Shown here: positions 36,162-41,755 of the stretch, one piece after another | Position numbering within the stretch: position 1 is the first letter of the stretch | How the letters are laid out: each line of letters starts with the position of its first letter | Source: Legionellales bacterium | Lineage (GTDB): Bacteria; Pseudomonadota; Gammaproteobacteria; JAGOUN01 | Reading direction: 5' to 3' | Assembly (NCBI GenBank): GCA_027486005.1 | Contig: JAIXPZ010000060.1 | Coordinates: forward strand, 3,088 to 67,087 | Length of the DNA: 64,000 nucleotides | Notes under the pieces: generated by a model | The model's database searches: none | What the model was told of the DNA's origin: nothing | What the model saw: only the letters and a program-made list of their open reading frames with translations | Made by a program: the position numbers and the translations under genes

Positions 36162-38753
36162 CTATTTCTTCTTTGTCGGCCAAATACTGATCAACATTAC
36201 AATAAATGTCGCTAGGTAAGGCACCATCTGCACCACTAAAATGGTGATCCAACGTTGACCAACTGGATTATTAAAATGCTCCGTAAAACTCATTGCAGCC
36301 ACCGCCACTATCAACGCCAGTAAAATTACAAGTTCTTGGCGAATACTCATTAAACCTGCAAATAGCGCCCCTCGTTTTTCATTTTTTGGGGTGCGCAAAA
36401 AAGGTAAATTATTGGTGAATAACCCTCTGAGCGTTCCCCTAGCGATAGTATGCGTGAGTGATAAACCTGCCAAAAATGCACCAAAGGTTTGCCCAATAGT
36501 GCACGGCACACGCGCACGATAAAGCCACAGGCTTCGTAAAATCTTAAAGCTGAATATTCCAATAGTTGGCAACAAAAATGCGCCGGCAGGCACTTCATAG
36601 TGAATAGGATCGTACAACAGAAGCGCGGTGAGAGATAAACTCATTAGGGTAAATATCAACGCTAATGCATCTGAAAACCACGGCAACCAACCCGCTAAAA
36701 AATAATAACGCTGCGCTGCTGTTAAAGGCGATTTTCTGAAGGGTAAAAAATTACGCCAATGTTTTTTAAGAATCTGCATTGCGCCATAGACCCAACGAAA
36801 TCTTTGTCCTCGATAAGCAGAGAACGTATCTGGCATTAAGCCTTGCCCCAAGGATTTATTGGCATAAACAGAATCATAACCGGCTTCATACAAACTCAAT
36901 CCCAATTCGCTATCTTCAGTAATACACCATTGTGCCCAACCACCCATTTGTATTAATGCAGTCTTGCGAATCAAGGTCATTGTACCATGTTGAATAATGG
37001 CGTTATATTCATTGCGCTGTACCATACCAATATTAAAAAATCCCGCATATTCCCAATAGCAACAGGCTTTAAATCCATTTTCTTTGCTATCGCGATAATC
37101 TTGCGGCGATTGCACAAACGCGACTTTTTCATTATCGAAATATGGCACCATTGACCTCAACCAATCCGGTGACACTTTATAATCACTATCAATCACTGCA
37201 ATAATTTCTACATCGTTTGACGTTTGTTCTAACGCGTAATTCACCGCACCCGCTTTAAAACCTGGCCAATTGTCCAAATGGAAAAAGCGGAAATTCAATC
37301 CTAATCGGGCACAATCTTCTCGCACCGGCTCCCATATTGCTGGATCTTTGGTATTGTTATCAATGACCAACACTTCAAAATTAGGGTAATCCAAACGCGC
37401 GGCTGCTTCTAATGTTTCACGCACCATATCTGGCGGTTCATTATGAATCGGGATATGAATAGAGACTTTAGGATAGCGAAAATTCTCAGGCGGCGATAAT
37501 GGTTGGAACAATCGCACCGTTTTTCGATACCAAATAACGTCGACAATTTCTAAACTTTCCACCAATAAAATTAACACGGCGATAACTTGCATCAACAAAG
37601 TGAGGCCAACAAAAATCAATGATAATTTTGTTTGATAGCGATGGGCCATCACTGAAATAGACCATAATAGCGTTGAAGCGCCTAAATTAGTGACCAAACC
37701 TAAAAATAGTAGCCCAGGTAATTTGATACTACGTCTAGCAAATACAAAAATACCCATCATCACTGCGCTCAATACCGATGCCCATATGGCCCAATACTGC
37801 CATCCAGGAACCGTCAACACATTGCCATTCAAAGGATATTTTGCTTGTCGGTCAGAATCAAAAATACCCCAATACGCACCGACAGAGCCTTCCATAGATA
37901 TTTTCCAAGGCTGGTCAAAGGCTTCAAGAATATAATAATTCACTTGTTCTTTTTCCGCGCGTCGTATCATTTCACGTAAAAAGGTAGCTTGATTTGCACG
38001 TGACGGAATTGAGTGACCAAACGGTTGCCCATCCGATGGCCAGCCCACTTCAGTAATTACGATAGGTTTAGCAGGATATGCTTTTTGTAATTGCATATAC
38101 TGGTCAAAAACAAGATCAACCGCATCATCAACAGCAACACCTGACCAATACGGTGCGAGATGCACCGCAATATAATCGACCTCTGCCACAAGCTTTGGAT
38201 GCGACATCCAATTAAACCATGTTTCTGAGGTGCTCACCGGTCGCTGTTCATACTGTTTCACCTCACGAATATAGTCTATTAGCTGCTGCTCAGAGGTATC
38301 TTTTCGTAGCAGCACTTCATTCCCCACTAAAACACGTACAATATTCTGGGTATTGTTTTGCAAGGTTGCTCGTAGTAAGTCCATTTCTTGGCGATTTTGC
38401 TCTAAATTTTCTCCAATCAATGCCCCAAGCGCCACATTAAGATTATGTTTCGCGGCTAATTGGGGCACTTGGTTCAAACCTCGAGAAACGCTAAAAGTTC
38501 TAACTGAATGCACTTTATTCTCTAGCAAAGCTAAATCACTTTCGATATCAGCAGCACTTGGATATTTATCATTGGTTTGAGTGTCATTTTTACGCATAGG
38601 ATCAAAATCCACACCCATGGTTGTTTTCGTCCAAGGCTGTAATTGCAATGGATTATTGACATAACTCCAAATACTGAAGTTAAGAATAACCAATAAAACG
38701 ATGGCTATTAACGCGGTTAAGATTGCGACTTTTTTTTTCATTGAGGTTGCCAA
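36162..38753 (-). CDS. Bifunctional glycoside hydrolase family 17 / glycosyltransferase family 2 membrane protein (NdvB-like beta-1,3-glucan synthase)
   Basis: 863 aa. The N-terminal periplasmic GH17 domain has LVGNEVL and ITEVGWPS (catalytic Glu pair). The C-terminal GT2 has VIDSDY/DXD and the Q(R)xRW motif (RGQRFRW), flanked by TM helices. The true start is probably the ATG at 38741. Confidence 0.7.
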   Translation of the reverse strand: MATSMKKKVAILTALIAIVLLVILNFSIWSYVNNPLQLQPWTKTTMGVDFDPMRKNDTQTNDKYPSAADIESDLALLENKVHSVRTFSVSRGLNQVPQLAAKHNLNVALGALIGENLEQNRQEMDLLRATLQNNTQNIVRVLVGNEVLLRKDTSEQQLIDYIREVKQYEQRPVSTSETWFNWMSHPKLVAEVDYIAVHLAPYWSGVAVDDAVDLVFDQYMQLQKAYPAKPIVITEVGWPSDGQPFGHSIPSRANQATFLREMIRRAEKEQVNYYILEAFDQPWKISMEGSVGAYWGIFDSDRQAKYPLNGNVLTVPGWQYWAIWASVLSAVMMGIFVFARRSIKLPGLLFLGLVTNLGASTLLWSISVMAHRYQTKLSLIFVGLTLLMQVIAVLILLVESLEIVDVIWYRKTVRLFQPLSPPENFRYPKVSIHIPIHNEPPDMVRETLEAAARLDYPNFEVLVIDNNTKDPAIWEPVREDCARLGLNFRFFHLDNWPGFKAGAVNYALEQTSNDVEIIAVIDSDYKVSPDWLRSMVPYFDNEKVAFVQSPQDYRDSKENGFKACCYWEYAGFFNIGMVQRNEYNAIIQHGTMTLIRKTALIQMGGWAQWCITEDSELGLSLYEAGYDSVYANKSLGQGLMPDTFSAYRGQRFRWVYGAMQILKKHWRNFLPFRKSPLTAAQRYYFLAGWLPWFSDALALIFTLMSLSLTALLLYDPIHYEVPAGAFLLPTIGIFSFKILRSLWLYRARVPCTIGQTFGAFLAGLSLTHTIARGTLRGLFTNNLPFLRTPKNEKRGALFAGLMSIRQELVILLALIVAVAAMSFTEHFNNPVGQRWITILVVQMVPYLATFIVMLISIWPTKKK

Positions 38754-38818: not shown

Positions 38819-40144
38819 TTAGGAAGTCATGCGCATATTCAACCATTGCTCCAATTCTTTCACAGTCACTCCAAGCCCAGCAATACGAGGCGGCGCGAGC
38901 TCAGCAAGATCTTCCATCAAATCTTCTTTAAAATTTATTTGATCTTTTTCTGGAATATGTTCTTTCGTTTGTAGATCCGCATATGCCTTAAGATTATCTC
39001 CAATTAATTGTTGTAGAATAATCTCACGGATCACCTTTCTACGCTGAGTTCGATAACGTACGCGAATTTCATCAAATCCTATTACCTCAAGCGTCACAGC
39101 ATATTCTTCACTGGTTTTCTGATACGAAGAAGCAAATATATTTGCAAGCGGGCCCACTTCATTCAATTCATAAATGGCAATCATTGCAGAAATATAATCT
39201 TCTTTATTAATGTAATTAAAAGAAAGCGGCACTAAATTGTTTTTAATCAAAGGAATATTTGCGCTTAATCGAGCGGTTCGCTTATTCACATCAGCAAAAG
39301 CTTGCAAATACGCAACATGCACTAAAAGAAAAAAACTCTGCTCATAAGGATCCGTAATTTTATTGGCTGTCTCACAGATATAATATAACTCATCCACCAG
39401 AGGATCACGCCCTTCTAAGGTCATATATGTCGTTCCATAAACACGCACTGCATGATCTCGAACATTTCCAACTGAAGATGATGGTTGAAGCAAGCCGTCG
39501 GATAATAAGTAATGCAGTGTACAAATTTCATCATAATTAATTTGAAGTCTATGAGCGTTATCTACAAGATGTCGAATAGCCTCTTTATGATTAAGAATCA
39601 TAACTTTTTCTTCATCTAACTTATCTGTATTCGCCACACCTTCTATAATTAATTTCTCAGTTTCTAGCAACGAATAAGTATTACCCTCTAAGCGTGATGA
39701 GTTATACGATAAATCAATTAACAAACGGTTATAAATTCTTCTCGCATAAGTTCCAGCCGGATCTTTTGAGGTGCTCTGCTCCGCGTGCATGGCACGCAAA
39801 AGAGCCCATGTGCCTTGAGGCAAATAACGATCAATATTGGGTCGATAAGCGTGCACCCATTCTATATTATAAGCAACAGGTTGACGTTGATATAACGGCT
39901 TTTTGATTTGCTCCAAAATACTATGACTCTGAGCAGTAAAACTTGATGGTTTTATTGATAGATAAGTAGTATTACGTTTTTCCCCTATTTTTATTATCAT
40001 TCCCGCACGAACGAACTGCTCAAGCCATCGCCTAACCGTACGCTCAGGAAAATCAGGCCCTAATTGTTGCAATAACACTGATAAACCTACAGGTGATAAT
40101 TGGTTGTTAAGCACCCTGAAAAGAGCATTTTTTTTTGAATTCAT
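38819..40144 (-). CDS. Fic/Doc-fold protein with an N-terminal winged-helix and a degenerate catalytic motif
   Basis: Contains the Fic-family SRLEGNTYS motif. The core-motif position reads QAFADVNKRTAR instead of HPFx(D/E)GNGRxxR, so the catalytic His is replaced by Gln. The N-terminal ~70 aa look like a winged helix-turn-helix (wHTH). I chose the start at the ATG at 40144 because the ORF-track 5' extension is built from the direct repeats. Confidence 0.5.
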   Translation of the reverse strand: MNSKKNALFRVLNNQLSPVGLSVLLQQLGPDFPERTVRRWLEQFVRAGMIIKIGEKRNTTYLSIKPSSFTAQSHSILEQIKKPLYQRQPVAYNIEWVHAYRPNIDRYLPQGTWALLRAMHAEQSTSKDPAGTYARRIYNRLLIDLSYNSSRLEGNTYSLLETEKLIIEGVANTDKLDEEKVMILNHKEAIRHLVDNAHRLQINYDEICTLHYLLSDGLLQPSSSVGNVRDHAVRVYGTTYMTLEGRDPLVDELYYICETANKITDPYEQSFFLLVHVAYLQAFADVNKRTARLSANIPLIKNNLVPLSFNYINKEDYISAMIAIYELNEVGPLANIFASSYQKTSEEYAVTLEVIGFDEIRVRYRTQRRKVIREIILQQLIGDNLKAYADLQTKEHIPEKDQINFKEDLMEDLAELAPPRIAGLGVTVKELEQWLNMRMTS

Positions 40145-40146
40145 GG

Positions 40147-40218
40147 ATACGGCCAATTTCCAATAAAGATACGGCCATTTTACCCCTGATACGGCCAAAT
40201 TTTCAATAGATACGGCCA
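40147..40218. promoter_or_regulatory. Four direct repeats of GATACGGCCA at 21/20/21-bp spacing (iteron/operator-like) immediately 5' of the Fic-like gene
   Basis: Exact 10-mers at 40147, 40168, 40188 and 40209. The spacing is about two helical turns and is not a multiple of 3 throughout, which argues for a DNA-level repeat rather than a protein-level one. Confidence 0.6.
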
Positions 40219-40340
40219 TTTTTAGGTTTTTTTAATCAATAAGTCGATTATGCTTAAAAAACTGTAAAGACTAAAGTCATACCATTCTAAGACTTCACCG
40301 ATTATACTCACGAGATAGACATTTTTTTGATATAATTTTT

Positions 40341-40943
40341 ATGGAACTTCTTAAACAGGCGCTAGATACTAATTGTATTACACTCACTGAGCAACAGATT
40401 GAAAAGCTCGCGGCTTATTTGGACCAACTTAATCGTTGGAACAAGACTTATAATTTGACAGCGATCACCGACCACAAAGAGCAAGTATATAAACATATTG
40501 TTGATAGTTTGAGCATACGTGACGCTATTAGGGGGCCAAAAGTGTGCGATGTCGGCACAGGGCCGGGTTTACCCGGAATTCCCTTGGCGATTGCTCTACC
40601 AGATATCCATTTTACTTTAGTCGACAGCAGCCAAAAACGAATCATTTTTATTCAACACACCTTGATGAAACTTGGCATTACGAATGTGACCGCATTGCAT
40701 GAGCGAATTGAAGAAAATACAGATACGTTTAATACCCTTATTTCTCGCGCCTTCAGCTCAATTCAAGATTTTGTCGAAAAAACTCGACATTTACTTGCTA
40801 ATAACGGTCAATTATTGGCCATGAAAGGCGCTTATCCAACAGAAGAATTAACCCAAATCCCACAAGACTTTATTGTCGAAGATGTGCGAAAATTGACGAT
40901 TAACGGACTAGGTGCAGAACGACATCTAGTGATTATTAAATAA
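40341..40943 (+). CDS. rsmG: 16S rRNA m7G527 methyltransferase RsmG (GidB)
   Basis: 200 aa with a SAM-binding motif (VCDVGTGPGLPGIPLAI) and a conserved RsmG C-terminus. Confidence 0.9.
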   Translation: MELLKQALDTNCITLTEQQIEKLAAYLDQLNRWNKTYNLTAITDHKEQVYKHIVDSLSIRDAIRGPKVCDVGTGPGLPGIPLAIALPDIHFTLVDSSQKRIIFIQHTLMKLGITNVTALHERIEENTDTFNTLISRAFSSIQDFVEKTRHLLANNGQLLAMKGAYPTEELTQIPQDFIVEDVRKLTINGLGAERHLVIIK

Positions 40944-40951
40944 GGTGCTTC

Positions 40952-41755
40952 GTGGGGAAAATAATTGCAATCGCTAACCAAAAAGGCGGAGTAGGAAAAA
41001 CCACTACAACCGTCAATCTTGCCGCAGCATTGGCGAAGATGGGACGCAAAGTATTATTGGTAGACCTTGATCCACAAGGCAATGCCTCTATGGCATGTCG
41101 CATGGACCGTGATAATTTATCGCTAACATGCAACGAAGTTTTACTTGGCGAAACGAATATTCGCTCGGCAATTGTTCTAACCCCCGAAAATTTTAATCTA
41201 CTTCCCTCTAATGCGGATTTAACAGAAGCTGAAATTCGTTTAGTTCAATTTGATCAACGCGAAATACAATTACGCCAACATCTTTCCATCGTTAAATCTG
41301 AATATGATTACGTTCTTATTGATTGCCCACCTTCGCTTAACATGTTAACAGCTAATGCATTAGTCGCCGCTGACTCGGTGCTCATCCCTATTCAGTGTGA
41401 ATATTATGCACTAGAAGGTCTTTCAAGTTTACTCGACACTATTGAACAATTAAAAAAAGCGGCGAATCCTTATTTGAAAATTGAGGGATTGTTGCGCACA
41501 ATGTTTGATAATCGTAGTCGATTAACTCAAGATATTTCCGCACAGTTACATGAACATTTTCCAAGTCTCGTTTATCGCACCGCCATTCCAAGAAATATTC
41601 GTCTTGCAGAAGCGCCTAGTCATGCGCAGTCGATTATTGCTTATGATATTGGATGCACAGGCGCTGCAGCTTATTTAGCATTAGCGGGAGAAGTGTTACG
41701 GCGCGATCAAGAATTAGTAGCACAAACTCCATTGCAGAATTTGATTAAAAGCTGA
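40952..41755 (+). CDS. parA: Chromosome-partitioning ATPase ParA/Soj
   Basis: The deviant Walker A KGGVGKTT is present. It is 267 aa and sits immediately downstream of rsmG, as in the gidAB-parAB arrangement. Confidence 0.85.
   Translation: MGKIIAIANQKGGVGKTTTTVNLAAALAKMGRKVLLVDLDPQGNASMACRMDRDNLSLTCNEVLLGETNIRSAIVLTPENFNLLPSNADLTEAEIRLVQFDQREIQLRQHLSIVKSEYDYVLIDCPPSLNMLTANALVAADSVLIPIQCEYYALEGLSSLLDTIEQLKKAANPYLKIEGLLRTMFDNRSRLTQDISAQLHEHFPSLVYRTAIPRNIRLAEAPSHAQSIIAYDIGCTGAAAYLALAGEVLRRDQELVAQTPLQNLIKS

Follow-up and report, generated by a model that had tools for sequence, protein, structure and literature searches.

The array, its gene and the predicted promoter

A short array of DNA repeats lies within a 64-kb stretch (64,000 nucleotides, hereafter the window) of contig JAIXPZ010000060.1 from a Legionellales bacterium, directly upstream of a minus-strand gene (38819..40144) for a 441-aa protein. 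This protein, recognised as an open reading frame (ORF) and through Pfam (Fic), AlphaFold2 (AF2) and Foldseek, combines a winged helix-turn-helix (wHTH) at its N-terminus with a Fic-fold domain in which glutamine replaces the catalytic histidine, and is referred to here as wHTH-Fic(Gln). The 10-mer GATACGGCCA matches exactly on the plus strand at 40146-40155, 40168-40177, 40188-40197 and 40209-40218, and these four are the only exact copies in the window. An earlier note on this DNA was right to report four perfect 10-bp repeats abutting the ATG at 40144 of a Fic-fold gene, but it placed the array start at 40147 and gave the spacing as 21, 20 and 21 bp, whereas the exact match begins at 40146 and the measured start-to-start distances are 22, 20 and 21 bp. 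On the minus strand the four sites read TGGCCGTATC, and the ATG is only 1 nt beyond the last of them.

In 128 kb of two-strand sequence, chance would supply a given 10-mer about 0.12 times, and the four copies packed into 73 bp far exceed this. The tandem-repeat finder TRF assigns the array a period of 20-21 and 3.7 copies, and the repeat units are 76-88% identical over 17 nt. The repeated part consists only of the 10-bp core and a W-rich flank, and the spacers are unlike each other. Outside the array, two one-mismatch copies are present in the window (16017 and 56110), giving six exact and one-mismatch matches in total against approximately 2.2 from shuffles, and the relaxed pattern TGGCCGNAT contributes one extra match. 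No second cluster of sites was found in the 64 kb with the exact, one-mismatch or relaxed scans.

The positions of the sites can be set against a predicted sigma-70-like promoter on the minus strand, TTGAAA-18-TAAAAT (40206-40177), which matches the consensus at 10/12 positions. Its two hexamers come from a consensus scan: the -35 hexamer TTGAAA (40201..40206) is the commonest -35 among the promoters of the family described below, and for the -10 hexamer TAAAAT (40177..40182) either the same hexamer or TATAAT abuts a site in relatives. Site 4 (40209..40218, minus strand, as are all four) lies immediately upstream of the -35, and site 3 (40188..40197) falls within the 18-nt spacer. The first T of site 2 (40168..40177) is the final base of the -10 hexamer, and this site covers the transcription start, which is predicted approximately 7 nt downstream of 40177. 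Site 1 (40146..40155), an exact match 1 nt upstream of the ATG, falls in the stretch from the predicted start point to the ATG, over the ribosome-binding region; its place is kept in the 68-86% relatives, and an equivalent site at -8 to -11 is frequent across the family. When the window is aligned with its four closest relatives (68-86%), all four sites hold their position while the spacers diverge.

Comparison with homologues identifies the ATG at 40144 as the true start. In most of those whose start could be placed, the Met precedes the conserved recognition-helix RRW by 39 residues, and the window gene agrees with them to within two residues. A longer ORF of 466 aa from 40219 reads through the repeats as MAVS...LAVS and is therefore an artefact. 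The repeats (40145-40219) are free of stop codons and translate as MAVS.../LAVS..., so gene callers and ORF finders place the start inside the operator; two public gene calls for relatives (P0002 and P0003) are stretched into it in this manner, at 455 aa. This is of practical value for genome annotation.

Both domains proposed for the protein in the earlier note are borne out by the structural comparisons. The Pfam match to PF02661 (E = 1.5e-8, 35.8 bits against a cut-off of 24) indicates the Fic/Fido superfamily fold, and the AF2 model, built from a 121-sequence alignment with a mean predicted local distance difference test score (pLDDT) of 92.8, shows a winged helix at the N-terminus, followed by a Fic core and by a C-terminal extension made up of helices. 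The best Foldseek matches in the PDB are FICD chains, with approximately 250 residues aligned at a root-mean-square deviation of 3.0-3.7 Å and a probability of 1.00. A sequence search of the PDB returned generic Fic cores only, and an NCBIfam search with the protein gave no match. The winged-helix domain (residues 1-63; 39956..40144, minus strand) is modelled with high confidence over residues 2-63 as three helices (2-13, 21-28 and 34-46) followed by two strands (50-53 and 60-63), with the recognition helix ERTVRRWLEQFVR at 40007-40045 and the wing GEKRNTTY at 39962-39985, both on the minus strand. Within this domain R35, R39, G54 and Y61 are invariant, and R38 and W40 are conserved in at least 90% of sequences.

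The Fic domain has an intact inhibitory motif and a degenerate catalytic motif. The former, SSRLEGN (residues 149-155; 39680..39700, minus strand), fits [S/T]xxxE[G/N] at the class II position, aligns with the FICD alpha-inh motif and is identical in 121/121 family members, which places the protein in class II. The latter, QAFADVNKRTAR (39269..39304, minus strand), aligns with the FICD motif HPFTDGNGRTAR and departs from the canonical HxFx(D/E)GN(G/K)RxxR by having Gln for the catalytic His and Val for Gly. All 121 members share QxFxD[V/I]NKR, and the Gln is also found in plasmid homologues at 33-49%. Furthermore, the Asp, Asn, Lys and Arg of the nucleotide pocket and the inhibitory glutamate are kept. 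Because the alpha-inh motif and the pocket residues are invariant, the Gln-type Fic domain is unlikely to be decayed. The family is large, with at least 7979 homologues scored among the 8000 candidates examined.

Conservation of the array across the family

The array travels with the gene. Eighty loci were retrieved by Fic-core peptide patterns only, the DNA motif playing no part in the retrieval; they come from Chlamydiota, Verrucomicrobiota, Legionellales, Francisellaceae, Microbulbifer, Alloalcanivorax and Thiothrix, at approximately 50% protein identity to the window protein. Site density was counted on either strand in the 65 loci with a placed start, where 253 copies of TGGCCGTA fall within 15.5 kb from -200 to +40 of the start and 11 within the other 412 kb, i.e., 16.4/kb near the start compared to 0.027/kb elsewhere, or about 600-fold more. 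Arrays contain 3-8 sites in both orientations, and typical chlamydial sites are found at -110, -93, -72, -50, -30, -8 and +22 relative to the ATG. Adjacent sites are spaced 20-21 bp apart when direct-direct, 22-24 bp when inverted-direct and 17-18 bp when direct-inverted, and all three pair types resolve to approximately 20.5 bp when the site centre is set on the GGCC of the core. As this corresponds to two helical turns, the sites share one face of the helix. The TGGCC side of a site is always flanked by a W-tract. Similarly, the overlap with the promoter recurs: a sigma-70-like promoter with its -10 ending exactly on the T of a site is present in 27/60 loci, compared to 0.7% of random anchors, and 24 of these 27 family promoters hold a further site within the spacer.

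In many relatives (e.g., L004, L006, L007, L011 and L014) the array extends into the gene, with a further site at +22 covering codons 8-10 (Met-Ala-Val); the window gene is without it, and its residues there are KKNALF. N-terminal MAV tripeptides are coded by ATGGCCGTA in 17 of 22 cases, compared to about 4% predicted from the Ala and Val codon usage of the same genes, which argues for selection on the DNA itself that constrains the protein at its N-terminus.

The repeat also changes together with the residues that would read it. In most loci the recognition helix ERSVRRWL accompanies the repeat TGGCCGTAT, and on a Thiothrix plasmid ERTLNRWL accompanies TGGC[G/T]GATAA. Among more distant homologues (33-36% identity), PRRTLQRRL goes with TGGCGC in beta/gamma-proteobacteria (L207, L208 and L211, the last of which has a helix of its own, ARRTAQRLI), and PRRTLQYRL goes with TTGCGC in alphaproteobacteria. 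Within the close family, substitution of the wing residue Lys56 by Thr is found with the sites TGGCCGAAT or TGTCCGAAT (L048, L055, L067, L069), and by Gly with TGGCC[G/A]GAT (L078, L035). In one metagenome-assembled genome, MFD09286.bin.2.11, two paralogues with different wing and helix residues have different motifs, TGGCCGTAT for L021 and TGTCCGAAT for L055, which suggests mutual insulation of the two copies.

These patterns leave little room for the idea that some other host factor binds the sites, or that the array is a chance feature or a recent tandem duplication without function, and we consider either scarcely credible. TRF does score a 20-21-bp tandem array, but nothing else speaks specifically for this idea. 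Against it stand a core that three phyla have kept where the spacers have changed, a motif that tracks the adjacent protein and is not the same in two paralogues of a single genome, and selection on the in-gene site at the codon level.

Immediately beyond the array lie rsmG (40341-40943) and parA (40952-41755), the neighbours named in the earlier note. An all-against-all comparison of the flanking ORFs of 81 loci found no conserved neighbour gene. In an 86% orthologue (GCA_018061255.1) synteny is kept, with a major facilitator superfamily (MFS) transporter gene between rsmG and the Fic gene, and in the 68-70% relatives the module is flanked by ubiC and ubiA in L204 and L205 and stands just upstream of ubiA in L206. 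Homologues are also found on plasmids and beside integrases, and complete genomes such as OY970065.1 and OY969899.1 have members of the family. Since the repeat-plus-gene unit recurs in bacteria of several phyla, the array appears to be unrelated to rsmG-parA; judged from these contexts, gene and array are most likely a self-contained, horizontally spread one-gene module whose position next to rsmG-parA is incidental.

The earlier note had likened the array to iterons or to an operator of several sites that face the same side of the DNA, and had allowed for a replication- or partition-related role given the proximity of rsmG-parA. The operator half of the first suggestion has held up, through the ~20.5-bp phasing and the promoter overlap, while the iteron half has not, as only a 10-bp core is repeated. 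That the repeats are replication-origin iterons or a centromere-like partition site tied to rsmG-parA now seems very improbable. The layout of iteron-Rep origins is resembled to the extent that direct repeats about 21 bp apart stand beside a winged-helix protein, and parA has no adjacent parB. However, GC skew stays negative from one end of the window to the other with no change of sign, there is no DnaA-box match (up to one mismatch) in 40145-40340, and neither Pfam (Fic only) nor NCBIfam (nothing) found a Rep or ParB domain in the Fic-like protein. Moreover, the array goes with the Fic gene into unrelated neighbourhoods and never with parA, which is adjacent in the window lineage only, and it is the 10-bp core that is conserved, not the whole 22-bp unit as in the Rep_3 iterons of contig L179.

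Several observations made alongside can be recorded here. The product of parA is Soj-like (267 aa), the next gene is a convergent ruvX-like gene and not parB, and a crude search of the window for the ParB motif GERRxRA found none. Contig L179 (6795-6952) carries a real Rep_3 (WH1/WH2) replicon whose 22-bp iterons, ACCGAAATTGGCCGTATCTTTT, include the array's 10-mer by coincidence. The idea that the protein is a plasmid initiator, raised by homologues near the start of plasmid records, was rejected, as the 22-kb plasmid pLA6_011 has its own RepC/RepA/RepB. An RNA element was also considered and dropped, there being no credible Rfam match; action at the RNA level is unlikely because sites occur in both orientations and some lie upstream of the promoter.

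Probable autoregulation and possible roles of the Fic domain

We estimate a probability of roughly three in four that the repeats form a phased multi-site operator which is read by the adjacent wHTH-Fic protein and through which the protein would autoregulate its own promoter; the sign of this regulation is probably repression. Autoregulation had been the alternative offered in the earlier note, and it is favoured by the co-occurrence of array and family across phyla, the promoter overlap and the co-variation with DNA-binding residues. In the mechanism proposed here, we infer that the protein binds the sites, that binding is cooperative, which way regulation runs and whatever part the Fic domain plays. 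One wHTH would read one site of the form (W-tract)TGGCCGTAT, and protomers would occupy sites approximately 20.5 bp or 70 Å apart, aligned on one DNA face. The bulky Fic and C-terminal domains of neighbouring protomers could then touch, which would make binding cooperative, and a fully occupied array would shut out RNA polymerase, resulting in negative autoregulation. Exclusion of RNA polymerase is proposed because the sites fill the promoter spacer, the -10/start point and the ribosome-binding region.

Several points weigh against this interpretation. Its support is comparative or predicted throughout, and direct repeats are at odds with a simple two-fold-symmetric dimer. The promoter hexamers are consensus matches whose count in the region is not above shuffle expectation, and the strict anchored promoter test is passed by 45% of loci only. 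The upstream sites of relatives, at -70 to -110, could activate rather than repress. No terminator is predicted on the minus strand after the Fic gene, so transcription from the promoter may continue into the genes beyond it. Finally, arrays without a detectable Fic gene exist (contig L121 and several phage contigs, described below), and so other targets or other binders are possible.

Some of these points would also fit an array that serves positive autoregulation, or that controls downstream or distant genes as a conventional regulon, with self-repression not its main role. We regard this as quite unlikely. The sites of relatives reach -110 and beyond, upstream of the -35, and no terminator is predicted beyond the gene on its strand; in L205 and L206 the stop of the Fic gene overlaps the start of ubiA, so that ubiA may be under the array-controlled promoter there, and in L121 an orphan array precedes an AsmA-like gene. 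Nevertheless, the core sites occupy positions typical of repression (spacer, -10/+1 and ribosome-binding site), the downstream genes are not functionally consistent, and the 64-kb window holds no second cluster. The gene that comes next after the Fic gene in the window, on the same strand (36162-38753), encodes an 863-aa protein in which a GH17-like glycosyl hydrolase is fused to a family-2 glycosyltransferase, and that strand has no predicted terminator separating the two.

Arrays away from an intact Fic gene were encountered in metagenomic and viral sequences. The metagenome scan looked for two sites 10-14 bp apart, a pattern with 18 specified bases for which chance matches are expected at the size of the collection and which therefore has little bearing on exclusivity; among the matches listed, a tblastn-detectable Fic gene was present in 10/120. 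Most of the matches listed arose by chance or from coding repeats (of Tyr-Gly-Gln in GC-rich DNA), or were tandem repeats of 22 bp with no relation to the array or a Rep_3 iteron set. On the 2.9-kb contig L121, 67 nt separate an array of 7-8 TGGCCGTAT sites in the family-typical layout (55-209) from an AsmA/DUF748-like gene downstream of it, and the contig carries no Fic gene; the array may represent an orphan operator, a target within a regulon or a remnant. Contig L158 (269-581) has a four-site array and, after it, a stand-alone wHTH stub of 74 residues that matches the family wHTH profile at E = 1.4e-19 and is probably a truncated gene copy, and the flanking ORF is a putative C-terminus of an insertion sequence (IS)-derived transposase. 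The wHTH-Fic family was not found in viral contigs. Three IMG/VR phage contigs have 3-4 ATACGGCCA sites about 20 bp apart (L233:3177-3225, L226:4196-4245 and L228:8315-8381), with no wHTH-Fic gene near these arrays and no adjoining wHTH ORF at L226 or L228. In L226 and L228 the arrays fall within a metallophosphoesterase ORF (putative GHIH-type motif) and may reflect coding constraint.

Within the autoregulatory reading, the Gln-type Fic domain is probably a ligand-sensing or effector part that modulates DNA binding or is modulated by it. More speculatively, and by analogy, it may sense a nucleotide or have a non-canonical activity tied to DNA binding. A related proposal, which would add to autoregulation, is that the array is a DNA scaffold controlling the Fic-like domain. 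Binding to the phased sites would build or hold back an oligomer, and DNA would turn its non-canonical, Doc-like active site with Gln on or off; one gene would then serve as a toxin, addiction or anti-phage module and autoregulate as well. We hold this to be rather unlikely. In its favour, the gene is solitary, occurs in variable contexts, on plasmids and near integrases, and retains approximately 50% identity across phyla; paralogues of one genome have distinct operator specificities; and the invariant alpha-inh and pocket residues (121/121) point to a constrained, not decayed, active site. The PADLOC database gives weak matches to SoFic (E = 1.4e-9, 35.8 bits) and PDC-S04 (E = 6e-13), and DNA binding stimulates the activity of the Fic protein CbFic2 (PMC10628234). 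On the other side, every member has Gln in place of the catalytic His, no activity is known for the clade, the PADLOC matches span the generic Fic core only (residues 139-355 for SoFic), and the family was not found in the viral contigs searched and has no partner gene. A further elaboration, which we put forward only tentatively, is that the phased array may template an oligomer of this pseudo-Fic/Doc-like protein, with DNA binding both silencing the promoter and gating a His-independent activity; the module would then be a mobile addiction or defence switch whose operator specificity diversifies to insulate co-resident copies.

In the literature searched, neither the motif sequence nor the topic of wHTH/Fic operators led to a description of this array, which appears from the comparative evidence to be one instance of a widespread, real and functional operator attached to the wHTH-Fic(Gln) family. 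Fic proteins have been studied mainly as AMPylating toxins and effectors, and the large Gln-type branch would gain a testable molecular handle from the combination of an N-terminal winged helix with a conserved (W-tract)TGGCCGTAT operator placed every two turns, even in the first codons. As the motif is conserved, co-varying and paralogue-specific, the family should be well suited, as a natural system, to work on the codes of protein-DNA recognition and on cooperative one-face assembly. The more interesting question, the function of a Fic domain without the His, is touched by these findings as well.

Comparison with known systems

The kind of mechanism proposed is familiar, since autoregulation by HTH-Fic proteins and phased multi-site operators are both already known. 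In iteron-Rep origins, a winged-helix protein is encoded beside direct repeats spaced about 21-22 bp apart, and the repeats also autoregulate the adjacent gene. These origins have a conserved unit of the whole 17-22 bp, an AT-rich unwinding element and a Rep gene beside them, whereas the window-family array has a 10-bp core, sites in both orientations, promoter overlap and a Fic-fold protein. Cooperative binding of many protomers to short direct or inverted repeats over a promoter is found in the omega repressor heptads, ParR-parC and BldC. In these cases the proteins are small, with a ribbon-helix-helix or MerR-like fold, and the repeats are contiguous or about 10 bp apart, in contrast to a 50-kDa protein and two-turn spacing in the window.

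Among Fic proteins, the closest motif is that of the Doc-like clade D2, defined in an in-silico survey by the consensus Qx[F/Y]x[D/E][G/V]NKR in 45 sequences that are usually single-domain (PMC4454073). The window sequence QAFADVNKR fits this consensus, with the same His-to-Gln change and the Doc-like NKR, a likeness by consensus only, and the survey mentions neither a wHTH nor an upstream repeat array. CbFic2 of Coxiella burnetii and SoFic (SO_4266, PDB 3eqx) are, like the window protein, class II Fic proteins with a winged helix, and for CbFic2 DNA binding alters oligomeric state and activity (PMC10628234). That binding was observed with generic double-stranded DNA oligonucleotides and was partly non-specific and HTH-independent (PMC10628234). 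The wHTH of CbFic2 and SoFic is C-terminal, no operator array has been described for them, CbFic2 retains the catalytic His, and the Foldseek similarity of the window protein to this pair is low (E = 1e-4).

CccR of Yersinia pseudotuberculosis, a class II Fic protein with an HTH, represses its own promoter and has DNA-binding helices 70.2 Å apart (PMC9755527). The two proteins differ in that the HTH of CccR is C-terminal and the wHTH of the window protein N-terminal, and in that CccR has the canonical HPFGNGNGRTVR motif and AMPylates FtsZ, whereas the window protein has Gln for His. The operator of CccR is one palindrome, while that of the window family is an array with 4-8 sites in either orientation. 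A CccR-like chain (7xux) ranks 28 in the Foldseek search, with no match beyond the Fic core, and was not found by sequence. The half-sites of CccR are separated by an unusually long spacer, with the helices about 70 Å apart, a distance comparable to the 20.5 bp of B-DNA in the window family, although this agreement is only an analogy because the HTH of CccR is C-terminal and its operator a single palindrome. In both cases a Fic domain, an N-terminal inhibitory helix and a DNA-binding domain are combined in one polypeptide, and the window array, like the CccR operator, lies within the gene's own promoter, in this case by prediction (spacer, -10/+1 and ribosome-binding site).

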